Below the pieces are notes generated by a model. The model made no database searches. It was not told where the DNA came from and worked only from the letters and a program-made list of their open reading frames with translations. Both the position numbers and the translations under genes were made by a program. Positions 1,556 to 18,434 of a DNA stretch of 64,000 nucleotides are shown in pieces. The stretch comes from Candidatus Marinacidobacterales bacterium. Its GTDB lineage: Bacteria; Acidobacteriota; Vicinamibacteria; Marinacidobacterales; DATDRI01. The number at the start of each line of letters is the position of its first letter. The first letter of the stretch is position 1. The DNA lies in assembly GCA_965219415.1 (NCBI GenBank), contig CBDCNP010000002.1, positions 608,001 to 672,000 on the forward strand, written 5' to 3'.

Positions 1556-1601
1556 GAACTTCCTCCTGGACGTCGAGTCCTCACCTGCTAAACTCCTCGC
1601 G

Positions 1602-2072: not shown

Positions 2073-2076
2073 TTCC

Positions 2077-2105
2077 TTGCCTCATCTCTGAGGCCGCGTT
2101 ACAAT
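2077..2105 (+). promoter_or_regulatory. sigma70-like promoter upstream of the ccoN-like gene
   Basis: TTGCCT (2077-2082), 17-nt spacer, TACAAT (2100-2105). Confidence 0.5.
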
Positions 2106-2131
2106 CCTCGCCGCTTTTGACACCTTCGAGA

Positions 2132-3508
2132 ATGTTCAGAATGGCAAGTAACGAGCCCGGAAGCGCGAGCCTTCGCTTCTGCTACGCGTCGGTCTTTTGG
2201 CTGATCGTGCCGGGCGTTTTCGGCCTGATTCTAGCCACTTTCTTGTACGTCCCAGCCCTGGCCGACCAGCTCCCTCTCTCCATCAAGCCGTACTTGAGCT
2301 TCGGCCGGCTGAGACCGGCTCACGTGAACCTCGCGATCTTCGGTTGGCTCTCGCAGGTCTATTATGCCGGCATCCTCTTCATTATCCCTCGGCTCCTCCG
2401 CACCGAGCTCTACAGCGAGCGGCTCGCCAACGTGAACTGGTGCCTCTGGAATCTCATGGTCGCCGCGACGCTTATCACTCTTCCGATGGGACACACCCAA
2501 GGCCGCGAGTACGCGGAGATGATATGGCCGCTCGATCTGCTGTTCATTCTGAACATCGTGCTGTTGGCGATCAACATCTGGGGAACCGTTTCCCGCCGGC
2601 GCGAGCCCAAGATCTACGTGAGCGTCTGGAACTTCATGGCGGCAACGATGGTCATGGTGCCCATCTACGCGGTCGGCAACAAGATTTGGGATCCCTCCGG
2701 TGCCTACTACGGCATGAACGACAACATCGTGAACTACTTCTATGTTCACAATCTATTCAACGCATGGTTTACGACCGCGGGGATCGGGCTGGCTCTTTAT
2801 CTTCTGCCGAAGCTCACCGGAAAAGCGCTCTACAGTCACCGCCTAGGACTCTGGGGACTCTGGAGCGTCTGGACCGGACAACATCACCAACTCTACAGCC
2901 CGGCGCCCGATTGGTTGGAGTACCTCACCATCGTCTTCAGCATTCTGGCAGCCGTGCCGACGACGGCGTTCATGGTCAACTTCTTCATGACCATGCGCAC
3001 ACGCTGGCACCTCGCCGCTCAAGACGTCGCGCTTCGTTTCTTTGCGACCGGAGCGATCTTCTGGGGGCTCACCTGCGTGCAAGGCATCTCTCACTCGTTT
3101 CGAACTTTTTCGATGGTCGTGCATTTTACGAACTGGGTGGTTGGACACTCGCACCTTGCCTTTATGGCGGCCTACAGTTTTTGGGCTTTCGCACTCATCT
3201 ATCTGATCGTGCCGACACTCAGCGGCCGAAACATCTACAGCAAGAAACTGATGGAGTGGCACTATTGGCTGACCACGCTCGGCATGTTGATCTTCATGAT
3301 CTCGATGTGGGTGGCGGGGCTCATCCAAGGACAAAACTGGTCTTCTTATACGATCCCGTTCCTGCAAACCGTGATATCGATGAAACCTTACTTCGGGGCT
3401 CGCCTTATTGGGGGCGCCATCGCCGGCATCGGGATCGGTTGCTTCGCGTGGAATATCTGGCGGACGGCGCGCAGCGGAACCCGTATTGCAAATGAGAGTA
3501 GACAATGA
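2132..3508 (+). CDS. ccoN: cbb3-type (C-family) heme-copper oxidoreductase subunit I-like, non-canonical active site
   Basis: FGRLRPAHVN, GREYAE, IYVSVW, YVHN, GQHH and GHSH motifs; about 12 TM segments; helix-VII Tyr absent. ATG at 2132 or 2141. Confidence 0.9.
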   Translation: MFRMASNEPGSASLRFCYASVFWLIVPGVFGLILATFLYVPALADQLPLSIKPYLSFGRLRPAHVNLAIFGWLSQVYYAGILFIIPRLLRTELYSERLANVNWCLWNLMVAATLITLPMGHTQGREYAEMIWPLDLLFILNIVLLAINIWGTVSRRREPKIYVSVWNFMAATMVMVPIYAVGNKIWDPSGAYYGMNDNIVNYFYVHNLFNAWFTTAGIGLALYLLPKLTGKALYSHRLGLWGLWSVWTGQHHQLYSPAPDWLEYLTIVFSILAAVPTTAFMVNFFMTMRTRWHLAAQDVALRFFATGAIFWGLTCVQGISHSFRTFSMVVHFTNWVVGHSHLAFMAAYSFWAFALIYLIVPTLSGRNIYSKKLMEWHYWLTTLGMLIFMISMWVAGLIQGQNWSSYTIPFLQTVISMKPYFGARLIGGAIAGIGIGCFAWNIWRTARSGTRIANESRQ

Positions 3509-3990
3509 GACCTAACCTGGTCTACCTTATCGGCGGCTCCCTGATCAGCTTGTTGCTCGGGATTATCGTCACCATTATTATCCCTGCGCAGGATCCGATC
3601 GGGCCTTCGCCGTTGGCCCAATCCTATTCCGAAGAAGAATTGAGGGGGCGTGATATCTATCTACGTGAGGGGTGCCATTACTGCCATACCCAGCAAGTCC
3701 GTGAGCCCGAGGCGGATCGTGGGATGGTGCGCCAGCGAGGCGATATCGGACCCGAGTCCGTACCGGGAGATTTCTACTATCAGTCCCCGGTTTTCTGGGG
3801 CACCCTCCGCCAGGGCATGGACTTGGCTCACGTCGCCTCCCGGAAGGGTATCGGAGACAACGTGGGCTGGCATGAGGACCACTTCAAAAACCCCCGGGCG
3901 TGGTCGCCCGGAACGGTCATGCCGTCCTATGACTATCTGTCTGCGGAAGAGATTCAGGCGCTCACCGCATATATATTGACGTTGAGGTAG
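3505..3990 (+). CDS. ccoO: cbb3-type subunit II (monoheme cytochrome c)
   Basis: GRDIYLREGCHYCHTQQVR, GMDLAHV, WHEDHFKNPR, PGTVMPSY; ATGA overlap with ccoN. Confidence 0.9.
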   Translation: MRPNLVYLIGGSLISLLLGIIVTIIIPAQDPIGPSPLAQSYSEEELRGRDIYLREGCHYCHTQQVREPEADRGMVRQRGDIGPESVPGDFYYQSPVFWGTLRQGMDLAHVASRKGIGDNVGWHEDHFKNPRAWSPGTVMPSYDYLSAEEIQALTAYILTLR

Positions 3991-3994
3991 GTCT

Positions 3995-4156
3995 ATGGTG
4001 TTCCCCGCAACTTGGCTGGTGCTGGCGACGGTAGCCATCATCTTGGTGCTCTTCGGCCTCGGGTACTACTGGGCGCGGAGCCACGGGCAGTTCGACGACA
4101 TCGAGATGGCGAAGTACTCCATGCTCGATAACGACAAGACCAACGATGAGCACTAA
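3995..4156 (+). CDS. ccoS: cbb3-type oxidase maturation protein CcoS/FixS (53 aa)
   Basis: Own translation MVFPATWLVLATVAIILVLFGLGYYWARSHGQFDDIEMAKYSMLDNDKTNDEH: TM helix followed by WAxxxGQFDD. Below the ORF-track size cutoff. Confidence 0.85.
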   Translation: MVFPATWLVLATVAIILVLFGLGYYWARSHGQFDDIEMAKYSMLDNDKTNDEH

Positions 4157-4397
4157 AGGAGCGCGGGAAGTACCGCCGGGCCACGACGATTTCGGGGGTG
4201 AGGTGCTGGTCGCCAACGGAAAACCGCCGCGTTGGGTGACCAAGGTTCCCTATCTGGCAATGGCGTTGGCGCTCGGGTACTACGCGCTGGTCCAGGCCAC
4301 CGATCCGGTAAACCTGGTCTTTGCGTCACTGTTCGTGATTTGGTTTCTCTACACACCCATTGCCCAGAAGAAGGGCTGGTTTTTCATCCCGATGTGA
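4146..4397 (+). CDS. small membrane protein resembling the CcoP/FixP N-terminal region, no heme motif
   Basis: GHDDFGGEVLVANGKPPRW resembles GHxxDGIxExxNPxPxWW; two TM helices; overlaps the ccoS stop. Confidence 0.55.
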   Translation: MSTKGAREVPPGHDDFGGEVLVANGKPPRWVTKVPYLAMALALGYYALVQATDPVNLVFASLFVIWFLYTPIAQKKGWFFIPM

Positions 4398-4493
4398 CAT
4401 GCCGAGGGGAGGTGACATCGATCAAATAGATTGAACAACTGCTTAGTGTGTCTCATCTTTTTTCAATTCACGCATTGAACTTGGAGGAAAGAA

Positions 4494-4928
4494 ATGGCCG
4501 ACAGAGCCGAACAAGCAAACAAGTATATGGAAGAGAAGATGTTCTTCACTCCCCGCATGTTCAAAGTAACCAACACGCTGGCACCGGAAGTCGGGGAGCG
4601 CTTCGCCGATTTTTACGAGTCGGTGTGGGCGGACGGCAACCTGCCCCGCAAGATCAAAGAGCTAATGTTCGTCTCCATTGGCGTGGCTTACATGTCGCCA
4701 CGCTGCATCATCCACGTTCAGCCCGCCATCAAGGCCGGTGCCACGGACGGCGAGATCTTCGAGTCAGTGTCGGTCGGTATGCTGGCGGCTGGGTTCGTGC
4801 CCGGCGGACCAGGCATCCCCTATGCCTTCGAATATGCCGCCAAGACGCTGGACATTGCAGCCAAGATCCGTAAGGGCGAAGACTTCGAGTATCTCCCTGG
4901 ACCCAAGTTCGACAAGGGCGTCGGCTAA
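4494..4928 (+). CDS. carboxymuconolactone decarboxylase/AhpD family protein
   Basis: LPRKIKELMFVSIGVAYMSPRCIIHVQPAIKAGATDGEIFE; GGAGG RBS. Confidence 0.85.
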   Translation: MADRAEQANKYMEEKMFFTPRMFKVTNTLAPEVGERFADFYESVWADGNLPRKIKELMFVSIGVAYMSPRCIIHVQPAIKAGATDGEIFESVSVGMLAAGFVPGGPGIPYAFEYAAKTLDIAAKIRKGEDFEYLPGPKFDKGVG

Positions 4929-4944
4929 GGACAACCGTCTCTGC

Positions 4945-4990
4945 GCAGACGGGGGTCGGACAAACTTAGGGCTCCCGTCTGCTTTCTCTT
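4945..4990 (+). terminator. intrinsic terminator-like hairpin after the CMD gene
   Basis: GCAGACGGG (4945-4953) pairs with CCCGTCTGC (4974-4982), followed by TTTCTCTT. Confidence 0.45.
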
Positions 4991-5007
4991 CTAAGACAGA
5001 ACAACAC

Positions 5008-5814
5008 ATGAGTGAGCAGAAATTTCCTAATGACGGTCTTCTGGTCGGCTCCGCCTGGCTGGCCGACCATTTGAACGATGCGGATTTGCGACTGGTGGAA
5101 GTGACGGCGCCCGGTGCCGGATACAAGTTCGGGCATGTCGCAGGCGCCGTCTATCTGAATCTCGACGATGTGTTGACCGGGAAAGCCACCGGCGTCGAGC
5201 GAACGGTGGGCCCCATCGAAGAAGTGGCCGCCCTCCTTGGCCGACTGGGCCTTTCCCGAGACAAGACGATCGTCGTCTACGACGAGTTCGGGGGTACCCG
5301 GGCCTCACAAGCTTTTTGGCTTCTCGAGTACTTGGGCTGTGAGCAGGTGCATTCACTGGAAGGCGGCATCGAACGCTGGCTCGCCGAAAACCGCCCGACG
5401 ACGAGCGAGGCGCCCGATGTCCGAGAGGCGACCTTTACTCCCGCGATTCGTGAAGAGCGTCTCGCAACCGCGGATTGGATCTTGGATCGCCTAGAGAATT
5501 CCGATGTATCGGTCATCGACGCTCGCTCACCCGAGGAGTACGAAGACGGCCATATCCCGGGGGCCAGGAATCGATCCTGGGACAAGACTTTAGCGCGAAA
5601 AGCCTACCAGGCCTTTCGATCGCCCGAAGACCTAAAACGTGAATTCTCCGAGCTGGGTGCAAGCGAAGACAAAGAGATCGTCGCCTACTGCATGACGGGC
5701 GCGCGCTCCTCACACATCTACCTCGCTTTGCGTCTGTTGGGTTACACTCGGGTCCGGAATTATGACGGGTCCTGGACGGAATGGGGGTCCAGACGGGACC
5801 TACCAAAGGCCTGA
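5008..5814 (+). CDS. two-domain rhodanese (thiosulfate/3-mercaptopyruvate sulfurtransferase family)
   Basis: GHVAGA and GHIPGA domain signatures, active-site YCMTGARS, C-terminal YDGSWTEW. Confidence 0.9.
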   Translation: MSEQKFPNDGLLVGSAWLADHLNDADLRLVEVTAPGAGYKFGHVAGAVYLNLDDVLTGKATGVERTVGPIEEVAALLGRLGLSRDKTIVVYDEFGGTRASQAFWLLEYLGCEQVHSLEGGIERWLAENRPTTSEAPDVREATFTPAIREERLATADWILDRLENSDVSVIDARSPEEYEDGHIPGARNRSWDKTLARKAYQAFRSPEDLKREFSELGASEDKEIVAYCMTGARSSHIYLALRLLGYTRVRNYDGSWTEWGSRRDLPKA

Positions 5815-5892
5815 CAAGCCTGAAAGGCCTGACAGAGCTGACGCGTAACCGCGTTGCAAGGCCGGTAATTTCATCTTAGGAGGATTAGGAAA

Positions 5893-7065
5893 ATGGCTAC
5901 CAGTCAACTACCGCTGTTCCCGGTTACCGTCGTGGGCAGCTGGCCGAGACCCCAGTATCTCTTGGACGCGCTCAGGAAGCGCCAAAAGGGGAAGCTGAGC
6001 TTCGAAGAGTTTCAGAAAGTCGCCGACAAGGCGGTGTTGGAGCAGCTACGCTACCAAGACGAAGCGGGCGTCGACATTGTCAGCGATGGCGAGCAACGCC
6101 GAGACAATTTCTACTCGTTCGTCGTAGAGAAGCTGGACGGCGTCGAGCTGATGACCTTGGCGGATCTCATGGACCACGTCGAGGACAAAGCGGGGTTCGA
6201 CTCCATCCTGCGCAGCATGGACGCTCCGGCCTTCGGTATCAAGAACCCGACGGTAACCGGAAAGATAAAACCCAAGATGTCGCTGTCGCTCGACGAGTAC
6301 GAGTTCCTGAAACAGCATACCGACAAGCCCATCAAAATTCCCCTCCCTGGCCCATACATCTTGATCCGATCCATGTGGGTCAAAGGCGTCTCGGACAAGA
6401 TCTACCCCACCCAGGAAGATCTGGCCGTGGATATCGTCAAAATTCTTCGTGACGAGCTCATCGCCCTTCGTGATGCCGGAGTCGACTTCGTGCAATTCGA
6501 CGAACCCGTGCTCACCGACGTCGCTTTCAACCCTGCGGTGAAGGAACGCACGTTCATGTGCGCCTCGATGGCGGCGTCCTCGGGTGATCCGACCAAAGAG
6601 CTCCTGCTGGCGACGCGCATGATGAACAGTATCGTCGACGGCGTCGATGGCATCCGCACCGGCGTCCACGTGTGCCGTGGTAACTGGAGCCGCAAGGACG
6701 AGGTGTTGCTCAAGGGAAGCTATGAGCCGCTGGTCCCGACCATGATGGGGATGCATCTCGATCAGCTCGTCCTCGAGTACGCAACACCGCGTGCCGGTGA
6801 GCTCGCGGCCTTCTCGCACCATCCCAAGGAAAAGGAGATCGGACTGGGCGTTGTCAATCCTCGAACCGACGAGATGGAGTCGCCGGACTCGGTGGTCGAG
6901 CGAGTCAACGAGGCCCTGAAGTACTTCAAGCCCGAGCAGATTTATCTCAACCCCGATTGCGGTTTCGGAACCTTCGCCGAGCGGCCGATGAATCCTGCAG
7001 GGATCGCGGGAAAGAAATTGGCCGTCATCGGTGAGGCGGCCAAGAAGCTCCGTGCAAGCCACTAG
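5893..7065 (+). CDS. cobalamin-independent methionine synthase (MetE catalytic-domain) family Zn enzyme; candidate thiol alkyl/methyl transferase
   Basis: VVGSWPRP, SDGEQRR, QFDEP, Zn ligands HVC...E...NPDCG; 390 aa, single barrel only. Confidence 0.85.
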   Translation: MATSQLPLFPVTVVGSWPRPQYLLDALRKRQKGKLSFEEFQKVADKAVLEQLRYQDEAGVDIVSDGEQRRDNFYSFVVEKLDGVELMTLADLMDHVEDKAGFDSILRSMDAPAFGIKNPTVTGKIKPKMSLSLDEYEFLKQHTDKPIKIPLPGPYILIRSMWVKGVSDKIYPTQEDLAVDIVKILRDELIALRDAGVDFVQFDEPVLTDVAFNPAVKERTFMCASMAASSGDPTKELLLATRMMNSIVDGVDGIRTGVHVCRGNWSRKDEVLLKGSYEPLVPTMMGMHLDQLVLEYATPRAGELAAFSHHPKEKEIGLGVVNPRTDEMESPDSVVERVNEALKYFKPEQIYLNPDCGFGTFAERPMNPAGIAGKKLAVIGEAAKKLRASH

Positions 7066-7315
7066 CAGGGTGCTGAAAAATTCGCGGCACACTGCGCGAG
7101 GAGCCATCAGCTGTCCCGAAGCCGCTTGCCAGAAGGAACGGGGGGGGCCCCGCCGCACTGATGAAGGAGCGAACCCGCGTGGGCCGTCAAACTAGGTCGT
7201 TGCTGAAACTGGACGTGACCAGGCGGCGGGCCGATGAAAGTTCGCCGAGCGAAGAGCGAGGCGCCAAGCGCGCGAACGAGGAGTGAGCGCGCATTGAGCA
7301 TAGGATGAAAGAGTT

Positions 7316-7843
7316 ATGGAAGAATCGACCAAAATTAACGGGTTGGACATTGAGGAGACCCGGGAAGCCATCAAGACCGTAAGCGCCGTGGAGGGGGCAC
7401 CGAAGGCCCCCAAGAAATCACGGTGCAAATGGTTGACCGGTCTCAAATTCAGGACCTACGTACGGAACCACGTCTTCCTCGTCGATGAGCCCGCACACCT
7501 CGCGGGCGAGGATGAAAGCCCTAACTCGATGGAGTATGTGCTGGGAGCCTACGCCGCGTGTTTGGCCACCGGCTTCGTTCTCAACGCCAGCCAGAAGGGT
7601 ATCGAAATCCACAACCTCGAAGTGGCCGTGGACTCGACTCAGAACAACGTATTCACGTTTCTGGGTCTGGGGGGCGAAGGACACGCCGGGTTCGACACTA
7701 TCAACGCCAAGCTCTTCGTTCAGGCCGATGCGGACGAGGCCACGCTAAAAGACGTTTGGGCCCAGACCGTGGACACCTCTCCGGTGCACAACTCTCTGGC
7801 CCGGCCGGTGACCATCAATCCTGAGGTCGAGATCATTCCGTAG
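7316..7843 (+). CDS. OsmC/Ohr family protein
   Basis: DEPAHLAGEDESPNSMEYVLGAYAACL; the second Cys position reads SPV. Confidence 0.85.
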   Translation: MEESTKINGLDIEETREAIKTVSAVEGAPKAPKKSRCKWLTGLKFRTYVRNHVFLVDEPAHLAGEDESPNSMEYVLGAYAACLATGFVLNASQKGIEIHNLEVAVDSTQNNVFTFLGLGGEGHAGFDTINAKLFVQADADEATLKDVWAQTVDTSPVHNSLARPVTINPEVEIIP

Positions 7844-7915
7844 CTCCTAGGTCAGATTTCGGATCGCCGCCTGGCCTGCCTCGGACCCCCAAGGTCTGGT
7901 CTGCCTGACCCGAAA

Positions 7916-9316
7916 CTACCCTCCGGAAGCCTGGGGAGTGAGGGTGTATCCGAGAGCTTCGGCTGCCTTTTGTAAACCGTTGATGTGGTTTTGGCGAAAA
8001 CGGTCTTCGAAGGCGCGTTCGCCGATATCGATGTAATCGTGGCCATATTTGAGCATGCGGAAGACGAGCTGGGCGAGCTTGCGTGCTGTAGCAAAGACGG
8101 CGGTTTTGCCATCTTTACGGCGAGCAGTGCGGCGATAGTAAGCGCCTAGGGCGGTCTTGGAGCGGGAGAGAGATACAGCGGCCATACGTAAGGCACCGGC
8201 GATGCGATTGGAGCCGGCGCCGTTGCGGCGTTTGGAGAGTTGTTTACCGCCGGAGATAGGGCGACGTGGGGCGAGATGTAGCCATGAGACGAAGAATTTT
8301 TCGAAAGGGAAATCAGAGAGGTCGAATCCGATCTCGGTGAGGACAATGGCGGCGGTGGTTGGACTGATTCCGTCGATCCTGGTGAGGTCGCATCCAGCAA
8401 AACGCCACAGCTCGTTGCGCAGTTCGCTCTCGCCCCGATGCTGCATGTCGTATCGTTTTTGCGGATTTGGATGAGCTGGCACGTTGTGGTGTCTGCGTTG
8501 TGGCGGCTGGAGTTCGATGAGCACTTCAAGGATACGCTGGTCGAACAGTTCGACTTCGGCTTGTAGCGCATCGTAGAGACGCAGAGCCGATGCGAGGTTG
8601 AAAAGATGCTCGTCACGCCAAGTGCCGGTAAGATGCTCGGCGATCTCCTCTTCGCTCTTCTTGCAGCGTTGGTCACGAAATGCAGCCAGCTTTGACGGGT
8701 CACGCTCACCATCAACGATGGCGCGCACGATGAGCATGCCTGTGACGCCGGTAATGTCGGTCACTGCACGATGGACCTGAACGTTCATTTGGTCCAGAGA
8801 TTTCTGTATCCATTGAATAGCTCGACTACACTGCTCGATGAGGCTGCAACGCTGTCGGTGAAGCGAGCGTAGGCGGCAGATCGACTCACCAGGACGAAAC
8901 GAGCCTCGCAACAGACCACAGCTGTGTAACAGCTGCAGCCACTGACAGTCATGCATATCGGTTTTACGCCCGGGGACGTTTTTTAACTGTCGAGCATTTA
9001 CCAGCACCACTTCAAGACCCCGCGATTCAAGCAACTCATAAATCGGAATCCAATAGACGTAGGTGCTTTCCATCGCAACCGATTCGACTCCTTGCTCGAT
9101 GAGCCAATCCCCCATTTGATTCAAAGACGGTGTCGTTGGGGAAAACACCCGCACGTTCACTTTACCGTCCGACAAGGCCGGCCCACATACCCAATGCTCA
9201 CGACTGCCAATATCGATGCCTGCTACCTTCGACCTTGTCACCGGCAGCGATTGCGGCGACAGATTCTTCGACTTCCTACCACTCTTTTTCACGCGCTTGT
9301 GCATCACTGACCTCAC
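7916..9316 (-). CDS. IS110-family transposase/recombinase (DEDD)
   Basis: AGIDIG, VAMEST, GRKTDMHDCQW, IDGIS, PISGG, ATARKLA. Confidence 0.95.
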   Translation of the reverse strand: MRSVMHKRVKKSGRKSKNLSPQSLPVTRSKVAGIDIGSREHWVCGPALSDGKVNVRVFSPTTPSLNQMGDWLIEQGVESVAMESTYVYWIPIYELLESRGLEVVLVNARQLKNVPGRKTDMHDCQWLQLLHSCGLLRGSFRPGESICRLRSLHRQRCSLIEQCSRAIQWIQKSLDQMNVQVHRAVTDITGVTGMLIVRAIVDGERDPSKLAAFRDQRCKKSEEEIAEHLTGTWRDEHLFNLASALRLYDALQAEVELFDQRILEVLIELQPPQRRHHNVPAHPNPQKRYDMQHRGESELRNELWRFAGCDLTRIDGISPTTAAIVLTEIGFDLSDFPFEKFFVSWLHLAPRRPISGGKQLSKRRNGAGSNRIAGALRMAAVSLSRSKTALGAYYRRTARRKDGKTAVFATARKLAQLVFRMLKYGHDYIDIGERAFEDRFRQNHINGLQKAAEALGYTLTPQASGG

Positions 9317-9329
9317 ATGTATTTTGTGA

Positions 9330-9490
9330 GTGAAGGCTCCGGCCCGAGATGGCGATTGTTAGGATTCTGACCCTGGGGAGTGCTTCCGTTCAAAGCCTCG
9401 CCAATGATAGGGAGCCGGATCGGACCCAAGCTCGTCCTGGGGCATTAGTGCACCAGTGGTGCTACGGGGTTTAGCTGCCGGGGCCTTCAC
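9330..9490 (-). ncRNA. putative IS110 bridge RNA
   Basis: Non-coding end upstream of the recombinase, closed by a 14-bp stem (9330-9343 with 9477-9490, one mismatch), with short matches to the flanking target and to the opposite element end. Confidence 0.6.
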
Positions 9491-9540
9491 CGACAACCCT
9501 TTTATCAGCTCAGGTAGTTTCTCGCCTGATAGGGCCGGCC

Positions 9541-10655
9541 TCACGAAGGCCGCCGAAGCTCGACTACACCCTCACTCCCCAGCACTGCGAGAGGTCGTTT
9601 CGGGTCAAGTGCTGTCCAACCGAATCCCCGGCGAACGTACCGGTCTTCGCCGGACGCAGGATCACGTGATCCAAGATTGGAAACGGTCGCACGCTGTAGG
9701 ACTCCAGAGTCTCGGGAAATCATGCCGGCGCTGGCTCGCGGTTCGGTCTGGAAGCCAGACGGTTTTCTCTGAGAACGTCTCTTTAGGGGCAAGGGCTTTT
9801 CGATGACACCCAATGGCCCTTCCCAAGTCAGCCGGTTGGGAGCCCAGCCCTTGACCTTCAATCGCCCTCCGGTGATCGCCGCGTGACAGACCGCGCAGAG
9901 CGTGTGGAGATTCCAGGTCTCATCGGGACCGCCACGAGCCCGCGGAATGATGTGATTCGCGGTTAGAGCGGTTCGATTACTGCACCCGGGCCGGGTGCAC
10001 TTCCATCCGTCCCGCTCCGCGACTTTCCGAACATAGCCACCGTCAGTTTCCGGACCGTCTCCGAATGCAGGCGTTGTTGCATACCCACAAAGCGCCTCCG
10101 CGCACATGAGGTCGAAGACTTCGATGTCGCTCAGTGTTTTCCCCGCCAATCGCTCGAGGGCTTCCCGCGCCTGCTCCCAAGCTTCGACGCGTTCGCCCTT
10201 CGAGAACAAAGAAGAGGGATTTCCTCGTCGTCGGAGGCTGTTTCCTTTTCACTTCCTGCTCGAGCTGACGATTGCTCATGCTGTTACAGCGGTCGAGCCA
10301 CTTGGCCTCGGTCTTCGGTGTCGCGACTTTCACGACTTCCCTCGCCTTGGTCCAAGGAATGTCCCCTCGCCGGAAGGCCTTCTTCAACCTAGGCAACTCT
10401 TCGAAACGCTCCGCCATGTGCAACAGCGAGCGCGTCTTTCGATCCTCGAAGCCGAGACTTTCGCGGGCGTAGTCGACGGTCGAGGCAAAGCCGTACCTGA
10501 GATAAAGCCGTCGGGTCTCGACTTCCTGAAGATAGAAGCACAAGACGGACTCCACGCGGCGATGCACGCGGGCCGCGGCGACGAGGCCCCGATCGACCTC
10601 GCTCGGGGGGAAGACCTTTCTTCATTTCGAGAGCGGCTGCAGCAGACAGGGACAT
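9541..10655 (-). pseudogene. DUF222-like/HNH endonuclease, split by two frameshifts (~10.6 kb and ~10.2 kb)
   Basis: GFASTVDYARESLGF...GDIPWTKAREVVKVATP, then RDGWKCTRPGCSNR...NHIIPRARGGPDETWNLHTLCAVCH. The frameshifts may be sequencing errors. Confidence 0.75.
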
Positions 10656-11072
10656 GACACTAACTCCTTTTAAAATGAATGGCTTAACAAGAAATCTTCA
10701 CACTTCAATATAGGAGTATGTTAGGTGAAAGTCAAGAGTATTTAAGTTGTGTAATTATCTGAAAACAAAAGGATTAGAAGAAAAATCGGATGGTGAGAGA
10801 TCTGGGCGTTACCTCTTAACTTGCTGATAAAAAGCCACTTGCCTACTGCTTCGCGTCAAGACCGGATGTGATCGAAGGTCCGAGTCCCCCGAGCCGCCCG
10901 GGGTGTTCTGCTTCCCCTCTGGTCAAGTCCTATCGGCTAGGACAAACCGAAGCTTCCGCTACACCTTCAGTCCCCTATACCTGCTGGACGGTCGTTCCGC
11001 CGCGGCTAGCCTCATGGCAACTCCCCATCTTGGCAGCAAGCCAGTTCAATCTTGTAAAATACCCAGTTGACG

Positions 11073-11966
11073 ATGAAGAACCTGGTTCCACTGCCGTATC
11101 GCCGTGTCTCCGTCCAGCCTTACCAAGGCCAGATGACGGAGCCAGCCATCCGCGCCCACCTGATGGGCCGCGAGACCTATCGGCGCACGGATTTCGTCGT
11201 CCTCAGGCAGGGGCAACAGACCGCGGTCGTCGAGGTCACTGCCCCCGACCGAGAGAGCCTCTTCAGCCCCATCGATTCCGTCCGCATCGTGGCCCTGCCC
11301 GAAACATGTGTCTTCGTCGAAGCCTCAGAGACCGACCCGGCCAACCCGTCCTCCCTCGCCGCCAAGGCGCACGAGCTCGGAATCGAAGGCGAGCAAACAC
11401 TCGTGGTACGCGGCAAGTACGAGCACGTCGGTTTCATTCATCACCCCGAACCAATGGTCATCCGTGTCGTGGAGGTCTCTCCGCCCGAGCCACCCAAATT
11501 GTTCGACCTCGCCCAACGCGTACTCGGTTACGCGGAGCTTCCACCGATCCGGTTGGAGCTCACACGGATCGACCTGATCGAGCTCGCCGAAGGCCACTCT
11601 CCTTCCTCCTTCTTAGTGCCTTGCCGCTCTGGAGGACTGGAAGCGCTCAAGGCGCCGGTGCACTTTCTGGACGAGCGCCCCGAGCGGCACGACTGGACGA
11701 TGATCGGATGCGAACGCAGTTTGCAGTTCCACCGCCATTTCTACGGCGACGAGCCGCCCCGCATAGAGCTCTGCCCTCGCCAACTGGCGGGCAACAACGA
11801 CACACCAACGCTACTCAAATGCTGCCTGCTCGAGTTCGACACCGAGCTCGACGGAAGCACGGTGGCGGCGCCGTGGGGTGCCGACTTGGCGATGGTGGAA
11901 AAGGCCATCCGCCAACTCGTGGCGGTCGCCGAGCCCGCACCCGCCGGCGCATCTAAAGTTCCCTGA
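11073..11966 (+). CDS. Cys-rich conserved hypothetical protein, probable XcbA-like component of the CoM biosynthesis cluster
   Basis: First gene of the comA operon; LVPCR, IGCERSLQFH, LCP, LLKCCLLE and PWGA motifs. The XcbA assignment rests on position and recall. Confidence 0.6.
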   Translation: MKNLVPLPYRRVSVQPYQGQMTEPAIRAHLMGRETYRRTDFVVLRQGQQTAVVEVTAPDRESLFSPIDSVRIVALPETCVFVEASETDPANPSSLAAKAHELGIEGEQTLVVRGKYEHVGFIHHPEPMVIRVVEVSPPEPPKLFDLAQRVLGYAELPPIRLELTRIDLIELAEGHSPSSFLVPCRSGGLEALKAPVHFLDERPERHDWTMIGCERSLQFHRHFYGDEPPRIELCPRQLAGNNDTPTLLKCCLLEFDTELDGSTVAAPWGADLAMVEKAIRQLVAVAEPAPAGASKVP

Positions 11967-11991
11967 CCGCAATCACCGGAGGAAAGCCTTC

Positions 11992-12828
11992 ATGACCAAA
12001 GCCTGGACTGCCATCTTTCCCGAACTGGCGGCCCGCTCGCGCAAGCCGCGCACTCGCGGGGTGACGATGCTCCTCGACAAGTGCCAGGGCCCCTCGGCCA
12101 CCGAAGATCTCTTGGCGATGTCGGGTGACTACATCGACTTCTGGAAGATGTCCTACGGGACATCGGCTCTCCTCGACGATGGTTTCCTACGTCGTAAGAT
12201 CGAAACCATCGGCCAGCACGACATCATCGTGCATCCCGGCGGTACATTGGCCGAATACGCGATCATGCAAGGTGTCTGCCGAGAATACGTCCGACACTGC
12301 CAGACCCTCGGCTTCACCGGCGTCGAGATTTCGGATGGCACCATCGAGCTCGCGCCCGGTGCCCGACGGGATGCGATTCGGTACGCACGGGATCTCGGCT
12401 TAACCGTTGTCACCGAGGTGGGCAAGAAAGACCCCAACGAACAACCTCCGGTGGAGCTACTCGCAGAGCAAGCACTGGCCGACTTCGATTCGGGAGCCTC
12501 CTGGGTGATCGTCGACGCGCGGGAGTCTGGCCGAGGAGTCGGGGTATTCGATGCGGATGGCTCCGTCCGCGAGGACGCGGTGGATGCCATGGTCGACATC
12601 CTAGAAGGCCATCTCGATAAGATGATCTGGGAGACACCGCTCAAGAAACAGCAGGAGTACTTCGTCATTCGCTTCGGGCCGCACATCGGGCTGGGCAACA
12701 TCCAACCGCGCGACGTCCTGGCGCTGGAAGCGATGCGCACCGGGATCCGCTTCGAGACGTTCCACGCTTTTGCCAAGAAGCTCCTCGAGGAAGCCCAGCA
12801 GGCTCGAGAGACGGCGGACGAGGGATAA
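11992..12828 (+). CDS. comA: phosphosulfolactate synthase (ComA/XcbB)
   Basis: RSRKPRTRGVTMLLDK, YIDFWKMSYGT, PGGTLAE, VEISDG, TEVGKK, ARESG, LEAMRTGIR; GGAGG RBS. Confidence 0.92.
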   Translation: MTKAWTAIFPELAARSRKPRTRGVTMLLDKCQGPSATEDLLAMSGDYIDFWKMSYGTSALLDDGFLRRKIETIGQHDIIVHPGGTLAEYAIMQGVCREYVRHCQTLGFTGVEISDGTIELAPGARRDAIRYARDLGLTVVTEVGKKDPNEQPPVELLAEQALADFDSGASWVIVDARESGRGVGVFDADGSVREDAVDAMVDILEGHLDKMIWETPLKKQQEYFVIRFGPHIGLGNIQPRDVLALEAMRTGIRFETFHAFAKKLLEEAQQARETADEG

Positions 12829-12837
12829 AGGATCGCG

Positions 12838-14415
12838 ATGGTGTTTGGCGAACCCCCGTCCGACGAGCTCATCCGAACCGCGTACGCACGCGAAGCGGGC
12901 GACACGGCTATCCTTTGTAAGGGGATGAGCCTGGCCGACATCGCCCACGTCGTGGGGCTGGTCGAATCCAAGATCATTCCCCGCCAAGCGGGAGGCGAGC
13001 TCCTGTGGGCATTGCTGGAAATCCATCCTTCACCGCCGATGGATTTTGCTGTCGATCCCGCCCGCGGTGATTCCTACTCCAACCGGGAGTCCTACCTGAG
13101 AATGCTTACCCCCTCGACCGGGTGGCTGTCGGTGGGCCGAGCGAGACGTGAGTCCACGACCACCGGTTATCGAATCACCGTCCGAGAGCGGCTGCTGAGC
13201 TTGGCCGGCGCACTCGGCGACTGCGCTACGGCGGCACTCGAGCAATGTGACGCGCATCGAGCGACTCTCTTCCCCGACTACACCTACCTGCAGCCGGCTC
13301 AACCGACGGTGTTCGCGCATTACCTGCTCACGTTCGTCTACCCAATGCTCCGGGACCTCGAGCGTCTCGGGGGCGCCTTCGCGCGTACCAACGTTTCGCC
13401 GGCCGGGTGTGGGAGCGTCAACGGAAGCCGACTCCCCTTGGACCGCGAAGCGCTGTCCGCCATGCTCGGCTTCGATCGCCCCATCCCGCATGCACGCGAC
13501 GCCATGTGGCAGGCGGACGGTCCGATCGAAAACGCCGCCCTCATCACTGGAGCGCTGGTCAACCTCGACCGCTTGGCCGAAGACCTGCAGATCTTTTCGA
13601 CATCGGAGTTCGGGCTCGTCGAGTTGGCCGACCGCCACGCGCGCGCGAGCGTGATCATGCCGCAGAAGAAAAACCCGTACTCGCTCGCCTATCTCCGCGG
13701 GCTCGCCGGGGCCTCCATCGGCACTCTCGCTGCGATGGCTGCGGTCGCGAAGACACCTTCCGGACAGATCGACAATCGCATGTTCGCCTATGGCGACGTA
13801 CCACGGGCGCTCGATCACGCGGCGGACGCAGCACGCTTGATGGCCGACGTGCTCCGAGGGATCACGGTGAAGACGGATGTCGCCGAGCGTCGAGCCGCTC
13901 AAGACTTTCTCGGTGCGACCGATTTAGCGGAAGTCATCATGATCGAGTGCGAGATCGACTATAAGACGGCGCACCGCATCGTGGCTCGGGCCATCCGCGA
14001 AGCGCTCGACTCGGGCGAATCGGGGTTGTCCGTGAAACGGCTGGAAGCGAGCGCCGAAGCCACCGTTGGAAAACAGCTCGGTCTCTCGAAGAACAGAATT
14101 CGCGAATCGCTCGACCCGGCGAGTATCGTCGCGACACGCAGCGGCATCGGTGGCGCAGCGAGCGAATCGGTGGGTGAGATGATCGCCGAATGCAGGAAGG
14201 GCCTGAAGGAAAATGAAACGTGGCGTCTCACCACGGGAAGGAAGCTCGTCGAGGCCGAAACTCGGCTGGGAATGAAGGCCACGGTACTGAAGATCGTGCC
14301 CGCCGAGGGGGACGGCTCATCTGGAGCCGAGCGAGCCGAATCGGATTCTTGGGAAAAGGAGTTCGAAGATCTTCCCAAGATGCCTCCGGGGCGCCGCCGG
14401 TTTCCAGCCGAATGA
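12838..14415 (+). CDS. argininosuccinate lyase-like aspartase/fumarase superfamily enzyme (XcbC-like)
   Basis: YTYLQPAQP, SVIMPQKKNP, ATDLAE; directly after comA. Confidence 0.85.
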   Translation: MVFGEPPSDELIRTAYAREAGDTAILCKGMSLADIAHVVGLVESKIIPRQAGGELLWALLEIHPSPPMDFAVDPARGDSYSNRESYLRMLTPSTGWLSVGRARRESTTTGYRITVRERLLSLAGALGDCATAALEQCDAHRATLFPDYTYLQPAQPTVFAHYLLTFVYPMLRDLERLGGAFARTNVSPAGCGSVNGSRLPLDREALSAMLGFDRPIPHARDAMWQADGPIENAALITGALVNLDRLAEDLQIFSTSEFGLVELADRHARASVIMPQKKNPYSLAYLRGLAGASIGTLAAMAAVAKTPSGQIDNRMFAYGDVPRALDHAADAARLMADVLRGITVKTDVAERRAAQDFLGATDLAEVIMIECEIDYKTAHRIVARAIREALDSGESGLSVKRLEASAEATVGKQLGLSKNRIRESLDPASIVATRSGIGGAASESVGEMIAECRKGLKENETWRLTTGRKLVEAETRLGMKATVLKIVPAEGDGSSGAERAESDSWEKEFEDLPKMPPGRRRFPAE

Positions 14416-14439
14416 CCGCTCCCGTCAGAGCCTAACGTC

Positions 14440-15819
14440 ATGCCATCTCACATTTCCGATTCGCTGATCTACCGGGGTTCATGGGGAACCGAGGAGACGC
14501 GTGCGATATTCGACGACGTGCCCCGAACCCGCGCGTGGCTCGAGATCCTGGCGGTGCTCGCGGAAAGCCAAGCGGAGGTGGGTCTCATCCCCGCCGACGA
14601 TGCCCAGAAAGTGGCGCGCGCCTGCCGAGAGATGACGCTCGACGCCGAGTTCTTCGAGGAGGTCCGCAAGGGTTTCGAGGAAACGAATCACACCACGCTC
14701 GGCCTCATTCGCGCCGTCCAGAAGCGTTGCCCGGAAGGGTCCGGCGAATGGGTCTACTACGGTGCCACCGTGCAAGACATCGCCGACACCTGGACCATGA
14801 TGGCGGTCGCGCAAGTCTGGTCCATCGCGTTCCGAGAGTCGAGAGCGCTCGAAGAGAATCTTCTTCGACTGGCGGAGACACACAAAAACACGGTCATGGC
14901 CGGTCGCACGCACGGCCAGCCGGGACTACCTATCACCTTCGGTTTCAAGGCAGCGGTTTGGGCGAGCGAAACTCGACGCCACATCGCGCGCCTCAAAGAC
15001 ATTAGACATCGCCTCGGAGTGGGGCAACTTGCGGGCGGCGTAGGCAGCATGTCCTCGTTGGGCCCGCAGGCGTTCACGCTGCAGGAAAAGTTCTGTTCTC
15101 GTCTGGGGCTTCAATCGCCGGATATCTCATGGACCACCGCGCGGGACGTTCTGGTGGAGTGGTTCCAGCTGCTCACTTTGATATCAGGTACCGCGGACAA
15201 GATGGGGCATGAGATCTACAACCTGCAGCGTCCCGAGATCGGCGAGGTCAGTGAAGGTTTCGTACCGGGAACGGTGGGGAGCATCACCATGCCACACAAG
15301 CGTAACCCCGAGATCGCGGAGCACCTGGGAACGCTGGCAAGAGTGATCCGACACAACACGGCTCTCCTGGCTGAATCTCAAGTGCACGACCACGAGCGGG
15401 ACGGACGGGCTTGGAAATCGGAGTGGGCGGTTCTCGCCGAGACCTCGATGGCGGCGGCGAAATTGCTCGAGTTAACCAACACAATGACCGAACATCTCGA
15501 CGTCCACGCCGACCGGGCGCTCGCTAATCTGGAAGCGAGCCAAGGCTTCGTGCTGTCAGAAGCCGTCATGCTGAAGCTTGCGGAGTATGTTGGCAAGCAA
15601 AGTGCCCACACGCTGGTGTACGAGACCGCGATGAAGGCACACGACGAGGGGCGTCCGCTAAAGGACGCCATTCTGAAGAATGATGCCATCTGCAAGCACC
15701 TGTCCGCGGAGGCCATCGAGGATCTGTTCGACTACCGGCGACATGCGGGTTTCTGTAGCGAGCAAGTCGATCGGGTGCTGGAGCGGGCGAGGAAGGAGAG
15801 GGAGAGCGACTCGGAATGA
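14440..15819 (+). CDS. adenylosuccinate lyase-like enzyme (XcbD-like)
   Basis: GATVQDI, MAGRTHGQPG, GSITMPHKRNPE, HERD. Confidence 0.85.
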   Translation: MPSHISDSLIYRGSWGTEETRAIFDDVPRTRAWLEILAVLAESQAEVGLIPADDAQKVARACREMTLDAEFFEEVRKGFEETNHTTLGLIRAVQKRCPEGSGEWVYYGATVQDIADTWTMMAVAQVWSIAFRESRALEENLLRLAETHKNTVMAGRTHGQPGLPITFGFKAAVWASETRRHIARLKDIRHRLGVGQLAGGVGSMSSLGPQAFTLQEKFCSRLGLQSPDISWTTARDVLVEWFQLLTLISGTADKMGHEIYNLQRPEIGEVSEGFVPGTVGSITMPHKRNPEIAEHLGTLARVIRHNTALLAESQVHDHERDGRAWKSEWAVLAETSMAAAKLLELTNTMTEHLDVHADRALANLEASQGFVLSEAVMLKLAEYVGKQSAHTLVYETAMKAHDEGRPLKDAILKNDAICKHLSAEAIEDLFDYRRHAGFCSEQVDRVLERARKERESDSE

Positions 15820-16235
15820 AAACCTATTTCTACATCGGGCTGGCACTGATTCCACTCACCTTCGGAGCGTGTGGCAACGGAGCCGGCTCCAAGAGTGCCG
15901 AAGCCAACATCAAACCCCTCCCTATCGGCAACCCGGCAGACGGAGAAAGCGTCTTCATGGGTACGTGCATCAAGTGCCACGGCAAAGATGCAACCGGAAT
16001 CGAAGGTTCAGGAACGAACCTGACCATCAGCGATTTCGTCAGAAATCATGCGGATGCCGAGTTGGTGGACTACATCAAGACCGGACGCCCGATGAACGAC
16101 CCACTCAACACGACGGGCATCGCCATGCCCCCGTACGGCGCCAATCCGATGCTAACCGATCAGGATCTCGCAGACGTCGTTTCGTACCTCAGGACCGTCC
16201 TTAGAACCTCGACCATGGAAAACAACGACAAGTGA
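15816..16235 (+). CDS. monoheme cytochrome c, probable lipoprotein
   Basis: Lipobox-like FGAC, CIKCHG heme motif, distal MPP; ATGA overlap with the upstream gene. Confidence 0.85.
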   Translation: MKTYFYIGLALIPLTFGACGNGAGSKSAEANIKPLPIGNPADGESVFMGTCIKCHGKDATGIEGSGTNLTISDFVRNHADAELVDYIKTGRPMNDPLNTTGIAMPPYGANPMLTDQDLADVVSYLRTVLRTSTMENNDK

Positions 16236-16251
16236 CGAAGAGACAACCAAT

Positions 16252-17247
16252 ATGTCGACACCCTCTCGTTTCGAGCTAGCCATTCTACCTACACCCCTCG
16301 TCGAGGCCTCGCGTTTATCGCGAGCTCTCGAGGGTCCCCGAATCCTTATCAAGCGCGACGACCTGACGGGTTTCGGTTTCGGTGGCAACAAAGTACGTGG
16401 ACTCGAGTATTCCATCGCCGACGCCACCGCCAAAGAAGCCGATGTTGTCGTCACCGGTGCGGGACCGCAATCGAATCACATCCGCGCCACCGCGGCCGCG
16501 GCGCGGGCAGCGGGGCTCGATGTGGTCGCCGTCATGCACGGCGAGCGACCCGCCGAGACGCAGGGCAATCTTCTTCTCGATCAATGGCTAGATGTCGAGA
16601 CGCGATTCACAAATGATCCCGACCGCAGCCTCTTGGATCAAAAGATCGAGGAAGTCGCGGAGGAGCTCCGGCAATCGGGGCGACGACCGTATGTCATTCC
16701 TCGGGGAGGTTCTTCGGCGATCAGTGCCTGCGGTTACGTGCAGTGTGCCCGCGAATTGGGAGACCAGCTCGTAGATCTAGGTGCTCGACCGCACTGGCTG
16801 ATCCTGGCCACCGGAGGCGGCGGCACGCATGCGGGCCTCCTCGCCGGTTCGAAGATCTACGATGCGCCGTATCGCATTCTCGGTGTCACCGTAAGCCGCC
16901 CGGCCGATGAGTGCGAGGAGCGGATCGCACACCTGGCCCGCGAGGCGGCACAGCTCTTCCGACCTCAAGGGGAAGCCATCCACATCACCCCCGACGACAT
17001 CTCGGTCCGCGACGGTTTTATCGGTGACGGGTATGGGATCCCCTCACCTGAGGGCATCGAAGCGATCCGCCTGCTGAGCCGGACAGAGGGGTTGTTCTTG
17101 GATCCGACTTACACCGGTAAGGCCATGGCGGGGCTCATCGGCGAGATCCGATCGGGGCGCATTAGAAAAGGCGAGACGGTCGTCTTCGTTCACACCGGCG
17201 GAGAGCCTGCCCTCTTTGCCCACCCGGAGATCGCGACGCGTTCATGA
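16252..17247 (+). CDS. PLP-dependent D-cysteine desulfhydrase family enzyme (XcbE-like)
   Basis: IKRDDLTGFGFGGNKVR, QSNH, LDPTYTGKAM, HTGG. Confidence 0.9.
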   Translation: MSTPSRFELAILPTPLVEASRLSRALEGPRILIKRDDLTGFGFGGNKVRGLEYSIADATAKEADVVVTGAGPQSNHIRATAAAARAAGLDVVAVMHGERPAETQGNLLLDQWLDVETRFTNDPDRSLLDQKIEEVAEELRQSGRRPYVIPRGGSSAISACGYVQCARELGDQLVDLGARPHWLILATGGGGTHAGLLAGSKIYDAPYRILGVTVSRPADECEERIAHLAREAAQLFRPQGEAIHITPDDISVRDGFIGDGYGIPSPEGIEAIRLLSRTEGLFLDPTYTGKAMAGLIGEIRSGRIRKGETVVFVHTGGEPALFAHPEIATRS

Positions 17248-18326
17248 AGAAGAGCCTGCCCGCTGCGACGTACCTGACTGCCACGCTCTTACTAGTCTTA
17301 CTCACAGGGCTCACCGGCGGCGCGCCGCGGGAAGAGCCTCACGCCATCTGGGAAGCCGACAACCCGATCCAGCCGATCCCCGCGAGTCCTCTGGGCATAG
17401 ATATACGGCTCCATCGCCTGAAGGACCCCCCCACTCCCGAAACGGTGCGACTCGGTCGATGGCTTTTTTTCGATGAACGACTCTCTGCCGATGGGACGGT
17501 CTCCTGCGGGACCTGCCATCGTCCGGAGAACGCGTTTTCCGAGCCGAAACCGGTGTCGACCGGAGTTCATGGGCAAACGGGAACCCGCAAGGCCCCGACG
17601 ATCGTAAACCTGTCGAGAAGCCTCTACCCATCTCTCTTTTGGGACGGTCGAGCCGCAACGCTCGAAGCACAGGCTCTGCTCCCGATCGTCAATCCGATCG
17701 AAATGGGAAACAGCGTGGAGGCGGCTCTCGAAACACTTCGCTCCATCGAGGGTTACCGGAAGTATTTCGAGGAAGCCTTTGGATCACGCGAGGTCACCCC
17801 ACAACGCGTAACACGTGCCATCGCCGATTACGAGAGGACACGACGGAGTGGCAACTCGCCTTGGGACCGATGGAGCGCCGGAGATGCGAGCGCGCTTTCC
17901 GATGCGGCGCAGTTGGGAAGGCAAATCTTCTTTGGAAGGGGACGCTGCACGCGTTGCCATAACGCGCCGGATTTCACCGACGACGAGTTCCACAACGAAG
18001 GCATCGGATGGGTTCCCGAGACACAATCCTTCCTCGACGAGGGTCGCTTCGCGGTGAGCAAATTGGGCACCGATCGGGGCGCGTTCAAGACTCCCACTCT
18101 ACGGGACGTCGGCCTCCACCCGCCCTTCATGCACGACGGTTCCATCGCAACCCTCCGAGAGGTCGTTGAACACTACAACCGAGGGGGAAACCCCAATCCC
18201 TACCTGGATCCCGTTATCGAACCGCTCGACCTGAAGGAGCCGCAGCTCGAAGGGCTCGTCGCGTTCCTCGAAGCGCTCGCCGGCGAAAGCTACCGGGACG
18301 AGGCGCCCGCAACTTTCCCCAAATGA
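17244..18326 (+). CDS. di-heme cytochrome c peroxidase/MauG family protein
   Basis: LGRWLFFDERLS, CGTCH, FWDGRA, CTRCH, FKTPTLR, PFMHDG; signal peptide; ATGA overlap. Confidence 0.9.
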   Translation: MKKSLPAATYLTATLLLVLLTGLTGGAPREEPHAIWEADNPIQPIPASPLGIDIRLHRLKDPPTPETVRLGRWLFFDERLSADGTVSCGTCHRPENAFSEPKPVSTGVHGQTGTRKAPTIVNLSRSLYPSLFWDGRAATLEAQALLPIVNPIEMGNSVEAALETLRSIEGYRKYFEEAFGSREVTPQRVTRAIADYERTRRSGNSPWDRWSAGDASALSDAAQLGRQIFFGRGRCTRCHNAPDFTDDEFHNEGIGWVPETQSFLDEGRFAVSKLGTDRGAFKTPTLRDVGLHPPFMHDGSIATLREVVEHYNRGGNPNPYLDPVIEPLDLKEPQLEGLVAFLEALAGESYRDEAPATFPK

Positions 18327-18434
18327 TCGACTGAACGCGCGCGCCTCGCGGTCAACCTCCTATTTGACCGATGGAAGCCCGAAAAATAGAATACGCCCGC
18401 CCAAGCAAAGGATTTAAGGAGAGGAAAACCCACG

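Follow-up and report, generated by a model that had tools for sequence, protein, structure and literature searches.

The question raised by this locus is what a bacterium does with coenzyme M (CoM) when it carries the genes for making this thiol but lacks every enzyme that is known to depend on it. The window, a stretch of 64,000 nucleotides from a Candidatus Marinacidobacterales genome, contains at positions 11073-17247 an intact plus-strand operon, xcbA-B-C-D-(cytochrome c)-E, whose five xcb genes are orthologous to those for CoM synthesis in Xanthobacter autotrophicus Py2. In Xanthobacter, phosphoenolpyruvate and sulfite are converted to CoM by way of phosphosulfolactate, sulfoacrylate, a cysteine adduct and a thioaldehyde (PMC9457059). 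Judged from its sequence, the window operon very probably makes CoM by this same route. The pathway itself is known, and the novelty lies in its epoxide-free context and in its partner genes. An earlier note on this DNA had proposed a complete CoM pathway here; it missed the main point, which is that the genome encodes no known CoM-using enzyme and that a conserved cluster lies upstream, at positions 2132-7843.

As recently as 2024, the known occurrence of genes for CoM synthesis was stated to be confined to methanogens and to bacteria that use alkenes (PMC11507031). Archaeal-type com genes whose use was unassigned have been described in a small number of bacteria, some of them Acidobacteriota and Chloroflexota (bioRxiv 10.1101/2021.03.22.436540), and CoM without alkene genes has thus been hinted at before, via a different gene set. 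A literature search that covered mostly titles and abstract openings, with subscription journals outside its scope, found no description of this cluster, of xcb genes from either Acidobacteriota or Anaerolineae, or of a Tyr-less C-family heme-copper enzyme with Asn.

A complete xcb operon in Acidobacteriota

The five proteins share 44-62% identity with their Py2 orthologs (PMC9457059), and their genes stand in the Py2 order with catalytic motifs kept (Table 1). Gaps within the operon measure 25, 9, 24 and 16 nt, while the start of the cytochrome c gene overlaps the xcbD stop, and that of a di-heme peroxidase gene the xcbE stop, each by 4 nt; the earlier note had described both overlaps. The score and cut-off pairs in Table 1 come from NCBIfam 20.0, which holds models for XcbA, XcbC, XcbD and XcbE. 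Each Xcb protein of the window has its own model as its top NCBIfam match, with XcbA, ComA and XcbD above the cut-off. XcbC and XcbE fall below theirs; the corresponding proteins of Nocardioides JS614 score lower still (331.9 and 313.2), indicating that the XcbC and XcbE cut-offs are narrow. The expectation that automatic annotation would report argH, purB and dcyD and overlook the pathway is therefore not borne out, as three of the proteins are named outright and the other two are top matches.

Separate housekeeping genes are present elsewhere in the same genome (G000; G-numbers denote genomes and L-numbers the loci compared), with argH at C1:765300 and purB at C3:2495213, each within its arg or pur neighbourhood. 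XcbC gives 346 bits versus 150 for housekeeping ArgH, and XcbD gives 457 versus 210 for PurB. In a FastTree phylogeny of 63 rows, XcbC and XcbD of the window group with the Py2 and JS614 proteins, outside the ArgH and PurB of G000. A housekeeping argH/purB/dcyD reading is ruled out by the NCBIfam scores, the separate argH and purB genes and the tree placement. XcbA, which had been called Cys-rich, is only modestly so, with six Cys in 297 aa. Five of these, candidate ligands of the [2Fe-2S] cluster, are shared by 89-90 of the 90 rows aligned, Py2 among them. In comparison with a same-genus copy, the ratio of nonsynonymous to synonymous substitution rates (dN/dS) is 0.08-0.12 for xcbA-E; across the 11 cluster genes tested it is 0.02-0.12, with 0.33 for the cytochrome, which indicates purifying selection on all of them. 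A promoter scan was uninformative (5 sites versus 4.4 expected).

The host of the operon belongs to Acidobacteriota, class Vicinamibacteria, in agreement with the phylum first suggested. Reads from three of four runs typed as DNA or unknown cover all 30 bins of positions 1500-18500 at a depth close to that of the flanks, which makes an assembly join unlikely. The nearest copy, L002, is from Candidatus Marinacidobacterales (Vicinamibacteria, Acidobacteriota), with 86-89% DNA identity over syntenic blocks. Of the 61 genomes of the relatives search (G000 counted), 5 carry xcbA; a sample of 400 further genomes from the phylum yielded none, and one of 401 genomes from the class of the Anaerolineales genome G003 yielded 14 with the gene. 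A quick, unrooted IQ-TREE search with 90 rows of XcbA nests the acidobacterial sequences in a group of 18 rows that also contains Anaerolineae (SH-aLRT 94), and the XcbC and XcbD trees repeat one 11-row acidobacterial/Anaerolineae group with support of 99-100. In these trees, the Py2 proteins belong to a clade separate from that of the window copies, which share theirs with Anaerolineae. This placement suggests that the acidobacterial cluster was transferred from Anaerolineae; the GC content at third codon positions (GC3) of the cluster matches the host. The operon had been proposed to extend the host range of bacterial CoM synthesis; that range was already wider than the alkene oxidisers, as methanotrophs (PMC11507031) and the 66 loci gathered in this analysis show. 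A weak, below-cut-off match to the XcbA model was also observed in the control genome of Methanosarcina acetivorans; a distant archaeal XcbA relative, if real, would bear on the last step of archaeal CoM synthesis.

Epoxide enzymes and the MetE-like protein

The presence of an XecA ortholog was defined as a genome-wide match at E<=1e-20, a threshold at which both proteobacterial controls were positive (2/2). None was found in the five Acidobacteriota genomes with xcbA or in the one from Myxococcota, and 19 of 21 Chloroflexota xcbA genomes were likewise without one, single absences being limited by the incompleteness of metagenome-assembled genomes. The two Chloroflexota exceptions, G518 (L145) and G866 (L058), have an epoxide-type system whose XecA is 78-79% identical to that of Py2, and they fall in a region of the XcbA tree where proteobacterial sequences are plentiful. 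Within G000, Py2 XecA has its best match, at 23% identity, in the MetE-like protein MetE* of the cluster, and no match reaches E<=1e-20; matches to 2-ketopropyl-CoM oxidoreductase/carboxylase (2-KPCC) range from 25% to 27%, JS614 EtnA/B/C have no match, and a single marginal PF02332 match (25.3 bits) falls in a 274-aa frame. Among searches for gshB, nirS, nirK, nosZ and mcrA, each made in five genomes, that for gshB found none in G000.

Unlike the Py2 and JS614 systems, the window genome is without xecA/etnE, xecC and alkene monooxygenase, and has a cytochrome c gene between xcbD and xcbE. Methanotroph CoM/epoxyethane clusters (PMC11507031) share the synthesis of CoM without an alkene monooxygenase but retain etnE. 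XecA lies inside the fetched flank of 44 of 55 proteobacterial xcb loci (L011-L067; methanotrophs, Burkholderiales and others), and an alkene monooxygenase in the locus of just four; ccoN*, the AhpD-like gene, metE* and the cytochrome of the window cluster occur in none of the 44 XecA-bearing loci. It is likely that the CoM of the window operon serves a purpose other than epoxide metabolism. Strong selection on xcb genes in two phyla without an epoxide enzyme would imply a CoM-dependent reaction not described so far, for which candidate enzymes can be named.

One such candidate is MetE*, in which S16, E67, D203, H259, C261, E295 and C356 are kept in 115-120 of 120 homologs, as mapped by alignment to the MesD structure 3rpd (phmmer, 102 bits). 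The equivalents of S16, E67 and D203 bind homocysteine in core methionine synthases (PMC7857596), and the remaining four are predicted Zn ligands. Since these homocysteine residues are kept, and XecA and EtnE carry Asn and Arg/Lys at the first two, MetE* is, on sequence grounds, closer to core methionine synthase than to epoxide transferase. Its likeness to the core methionine synthases MesA-D (PMC7857596) extends to the catalytic-domain-only architecture and the Zn and homocysteine residues, while it differs in an extra invariant Cys223 and in scoring below every NCBIfam methionine synthase cut-off. The genome additionally encodes a 1231-aa MetH-like frame. Two more MetE-like genes were noticed, at C1:166611-167747 and C3:811115-812242, the latter interrupted by a stop.

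The conserved cluster and its tyrosine-less CcoN*

As gene content and order indicate, the xcb operon is the tail of a conserved cluster that begins at 2132 and runs ccoN*-ccoO*-fixS-orf83-AhpD-like-rhodanese-MetE-like-OsmC. The run from ccoN* to xcbE is unbroken in G007, L103 and L106, and Anaerolineae genome G785 has a matching, uninterrupted gene set with the cytochrome after xcbE; in the distant Anaerolineae G541, G850, L107 and L119, the matching set appears in shuffled order. Deletions have fused ccoN* to xcbD in G006 (L174:10410-13107) and to xcbB in G030 (L175:7595-12262), joints which indicate that ccoN* and xcb form one unit. In G022 (L078/L079), ccoN* is truncated by a transposase, xcbC is split and xcbE is missing. 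At an identity of at least 58%, ccoN* was found in 9 of 401 Anaerolineae-class genomes, and eight of these nine are xcbA-positive, compared with 14 of 401 overall. Of all the genes found next to non-epoxide xcb clusters, the AhpD-like gene recurs most constantly.

Table 1. Genes and inserted elements of the cluster, with positions in the 64,000-nt window; paired numbers are NCBIfam 20.0 score/cut-off, and percentages are identities to X. autotrophicus Py2 proteins
Feature	Position	Strand	Supporting data
CcoN*, cbb3-fold heme-copper subunit I	2132..3508 (start codon 2132 or 2141)	+	PF00115; best PDB matches cbb3 CcoN
CcoO*, mono-heme cytochrome c subunit	3505..3990	+	PF02433; alignment of 11
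FixS/CcoS-like small protein	3995..4156	+	PF03597 above cut-off
orf83, conserved small membrane protein, possibly CcoP N-terminal anchor	4146..4397	+	conserved in 10 aligned loci
AhpD/CMD-family protein, one conserved Cys	4494..4928	+	PF02627; Cys in 33/33 rows covering motif; dN/dS 0.046
Tandem-domain rhodanese (sulfurtransferase)	5008..5814	+	PF00581; start inferred from homolog alignments
MetE*, catalytic-domain-only Zn thiol methyl/alkyl transferase (predicted)	5893..7065	+	PF01717; conserved residues; dN/dS 0.02
OsmC-like protein	7316..7843	+	PF02566
IS110 transposase and HNH-type element, inserted, outside module	7916..10660	-	PF01548/PF02371, PF01844
xcbA, [2Fe-2S] thioaldehyde reductase family	11073..11966	+	NF052538 446.5/150; 62%
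xcbB (comA), phosphosulfolactate synthase	11992..12828	+	TIGR03849 298.8/280; 48%
xcbC, phosphate-eliminating lyase	12838..14415	+	NF052535 569.5/575; argH model 257.9; 44%
xcbD, sulfopropionylcysteine synthase	14440..15819	+	NF052536 652.5/600; 50%
Lipoprotein mono-heme cytochrome c	15816..16235	+	PF13442/PF00034; best PDB matches CcoP
xcbE, pyridoxal-phosphate enzyme	16252..17247	+	NF052537 398.6/450, top match; 49%
Di-heme peroxidase/MauG-like gene	17244..18326	+	PF03150; overlaps xcbE, not conserved part

The first protein of the cluster, CcoN*, aligns end to end with the CcoN subunit of cbb3 oxidases, to which its profile scores 316 bits versus 57-80 bits to cNOR, and reaches 289.9/583 on TIGR00780. 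An alignment-based model (pLDDT 87.7, a predicted local confidence score) has a TM score (fold similarity) of 0.90 to 3mk7; it is weak at the active-site loop (residues 241-260, pLDDT 56-59) and gives no distances, and a single-sequence fold was unusable (pLDDT 45.6). H64, H206, H251, H252, H339 and H341 do not vary in any row that covers them. A deletion of five residues in helix VII takes away the Tyr present in solved CcoN structures, so that CcoN* probably cannot form the His-Tyr cofactor. Both the shortened segment and N210, four residues after the CuB ligand H206, are found in all 120 homologs listed, of 948 found. The sole Tyr seen in the helix-VII segment, at position 236, is not at the cross-link site, and Y202 and Y204 are conserved, not invariant; a Tyr from another part of the fold might reach the CuB His. 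Four ordinary Anaerolineae cbb3 genes, 41-43% identical to CcoN*, retain the helix-VII Tyr. Databases annotate this Tyr-less cbb3 relative as an oxygen reductase, and the fold, the six His and the CcoO and FixS neighbours are indeed shared with cbb3 (C-family) oxygen reductases, from which CcoN* differs by the five-residue deletion with loss of the Tyr, the Asn at His+4 and the absence of an adjoining ccoP. The small protein orf83 yielded a FixP_N match (E=0.083) in one of four homologs scanned, and a PDB search gave it no support.

The Tyr site of B-family enzymes (Tyr237 of ba3) is taken here to have the same His+4 spacing. In PMC11214002, loss of the active-site Tyr is taken to exclude O2 reduction, and Dataset S1 gives Asn for both bNOR and sNOR at the site of the B-family Tyr. 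These reductases are therefore like CcoN* in combining the absence of an active-site Tyr with Asn at the corresponding position, whereas they are of B-family descent with a CuA subunit and CcoN* has a C-family scaffold with a CcoO subunit. The Tyr-less families presented in the available text of that source are B-derived or close to cNOR/qNOR. N2Ored, compared here by its description, is placed close to cNOR and mostly in Bacteroidota, while CcoN* is nearer to CcoN; Dataset S6 gives zero N2Ored in the first 15 of its 48 Anaerolineae rows. If CcoN* reduces nitric oxide (NO) or nitrous oxide (N2O), it would represent another independent origin of nitrogen-oxide reduction, and nitrogen-cycle surveys would read such genomes differently.

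The cytochrome c embedded in the operon has a lipobox-type Cys19, one CxxCH motif and Met104, all invariant in five of five aligned sequences. It follows xcbD in G000, G005, G006, G007, G010, G022, G030, L103 and L106. Its relatives occur at nine non-xcb loci, six of them 3' of a NosY-like permease, with NosL confirmed in both of the non-xcb loci scanned (2/2) and a nosZ-like gene upstream of the relative in G003. By sequence comparison, this cytochrome is conserved in acidobacterial copies and related to nos-operon cytochromes, and it is probably the electron donor to CcoN*O* rather than a step in CoM synthesis. The further acidobacterial copies that carry it rule out an incidental neighbour. 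The downstream peroxidase presents a different picture, being found beside xcbE only in G000 and, in partial form, G006, while in G007 the gene directly after xcbE is the counterpart of that at window position 22126. No peroxidase stands 3' of xcbE in L002, L077, L103, L106 or L148, by which its membership of the module is ruled out; it is a later neighbour. A redox role had earlier been read from both coupled heme proteins, and that reading stands for the cytochrome alone.

Candidate uses of coenzyme M

Gene identity, linkage, residues and missing epoxide genes are observations, from which we infer each activity and physiological role considered here. The reading favoured, tentatively and with a likelihood somewhat short of even, is that CoM acts as a small thiol of the cytoplasm. 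It would serve a module of roughly 15 genes for defence and repair under attack by nitrogen oxides and oxidants, in which CcoN*O* would reduce NO (or N2O) by two electrons. In such a module, CoM would pass back and forth between the free thiol and a disulfide or persulfide by the action of the one-Cys AhpD-like protein, OsmC and the rhodanese, while MetE* would carry out cobalamin-free methyl or alkyl transfer at a Zn-thiolate. The two-electron reaction of CcoN*O*, most likely from NO to N2O, would draw its electrons from the lipoprotein cytochrome c encoded within the operon, which would replace the missing CcoP. In Anaerolineae, the module would surround a Co(I)-dependent methyltransferase system in need of protection. 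CoM is described as a redox and antioxidant thiol in Methanosarcina (PMC12713407), and Co(I) enzymes as inactivated by N2O, with MetE protective (PMC13059711). The lack of a gshB match in G000 also fits this reading. A wider formulation, which is possible but held with less assurance, envisages a third use of CoM in Anaerolineae and Marinacidobacterales, outside both methanogenesis and epoxide metabolism. Methyl-CoM or thiol-redox chemistry would here be linked with either corrinoid methyltransferases or a core MetE, and its coupling partner would be a Tyr-less, cbb3-derived NO/N2O reductase of a family not described so far, convergent on bNOR/sNOR and fed by a nos-derived cytochrome.

Several observations weigh against the defence module. 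G000 has qNOR and an A-family oxidase, so that an extra NO reductase is not obviously needed, and neither nirK nor nosZ was found in it above cut-off. The cluster is broken in three of seven order-level carriers (G006, G022, G030), G640 has ccoN* without xcbA, and ccoN* was found in just 13 of 19 XecA-less Chloroflexota. Of 21 Chloroflexota, 4 have MetE*; xcb can thus occur without either of the two. The cytochrome c was not found in proteobacterial xcb loci or in most Anaerolineae clusters. Relatives of the rhodanese-MetE*-OsmC trio, at 50-60% identity, are found at loci that have no xcb genes (L114-L117, L120, L129, L132-L137), and the co-occurrence counts come from related genomes that are not independent.

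The main rival regards CoM as a methyl or alkyl carrier, with an MtaA-like protein of Anaerolineae moving the group between CoM and a corrinoid protein, an MtrH/MtgA-like enzyme passing it to tetrahydrofolate, and the acidobacterial copy reduced to a form in which MetE* handles the methyl group with help from the redox genes. This account is strongest for the Anaerolineae clusters, many of which contain URO-D/MtaA-like, RACo, corrinoid protein, PduO, MtrH and TusA-DsrE genes, with two to three URO-D/MtaA-like genes inside the xcb clusters and mtrH even between xcbB and xcbC; among the 19 XecA-less Chloroflexota genomes, 11 have corrinoid or MtrH genes at the locus. With type 1 mlp gene clusters (PMC10418091), the Anaerolineae versions share RACo, a corrinoid protein and MtaA-like genes, of which they hold as many as three; they add an MtrH/MtgA-like gene, excluded by the mlp definition, and CoM synthesis; neither CoM biosynthesis nor Chloroflexi is mentioned in the available text of that source, which describes methylation of CoM by MtaA-family enzymes of methanogens. 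The homocysteine and Zn residues that MetE* retains fit a methyl transfer as well. Against this role, G000 contains no close homologs of MtaA-like, RACo, MtrH or stand-alone corrinoid proteins, the MtaA-like proteins score under the NCBIfam cut-offs, and the alpha subunit of methyl-CoM reductase (MCR) was found in none of five genomes searched. A thioether is, moreover, a poor methyl donor without cobalamin. Taken as a whole, the carrier role is rather unlikely here. Methyl-CoM chemistry in bacteria could be probed directly through the Anaerolineae clusters.

Three further explanations are each improbable. Under historical linkage, a mobile Anaerolineae island would have brought together unrelated modules, with no dedicated CoM user in this genome or with the cluster in decay. 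The patchy occurrence of xcbA and the deletions and insertion-sequence (IS) events in G006, G022, G030 and G000 are consistent with this, but strong purifying selection on each gene tested, recurrence of the shuffled gene set in distant Anaerolineae and a GC3 that fits the host leave it only a small chance. Detoxification of epoxides or other electrophiles after all, with MetE* as a non-orthologous epoxyalkane:CoM transferase, is about as improbable, if anything slightly more so. No other G000 protein matches XecA better than MetE*, whose gene precedes xcbA just as xecA does in Py2, and both are Zn enzymes of the MetE family; the 23% identity of MetE*, however, stands against 71-79% for true XecA orthologs, it keeps Ser16/Glu67 where XecA/EtnE have other residues, G000 has no 2-KPCC match above 27% and none to alkene monooxygenase, and MetE* is likewise missing from most XecA-less xcb genomes. 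Least probable of all is that the five enzymes make or degrade another sulfonate or thiol. XcbC and XcbE lie under their NCBIfam cut-offs, XcbE scores 332 on a cysteate sulfo-lyase model and the clade is separate from that of Py2, but the Py2 gene order, the conserved catalytic motifs and the even lower JS614 scores, which mark the cut-offs as narrow, argue for CoM as the product.

Other features of the locus concern its insertions and neighbours. The IS110 and HNH elements, with nine and two copies in G000, together separate osmC from xcbA and are absent from G007, where osmC abuts xcbA. The HNH element (window 9541-10660) is split between two frames in the window, whereas L002 has an intact version of 372 aa, and a 250-bp intergenic repeat between metE* and osmC (7066-7315) has three copies in G000 and none in L002. 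At three loci, from one Myxococcota and two Anaerolineae genomes, all XecA-less, xcb genes lie beside a cluster of the MSMEG_0565-0572/sll0783-0787 type with radical SAM, AIR-synthase-like, GNAT, glycosyltransferase and CoA-disulfide-reductase-like genes (L037:460-10870, L154:242-16761 and L157:6271-19565, the last judged by ORF-start similarity). A cytochrome P450 is encoded within or beside the Anaerolineae xcb clusters L005, L008, L107, L148 and L159, and DUF1326/DUF2182 pairs in L005 and L008. Downstream in the window, 18435-21506 encodes one member of a large G000 family of VPS10/glycosyl-hydrolase-like paralogs of about 1000 aa, with more than 10 full-length matches.

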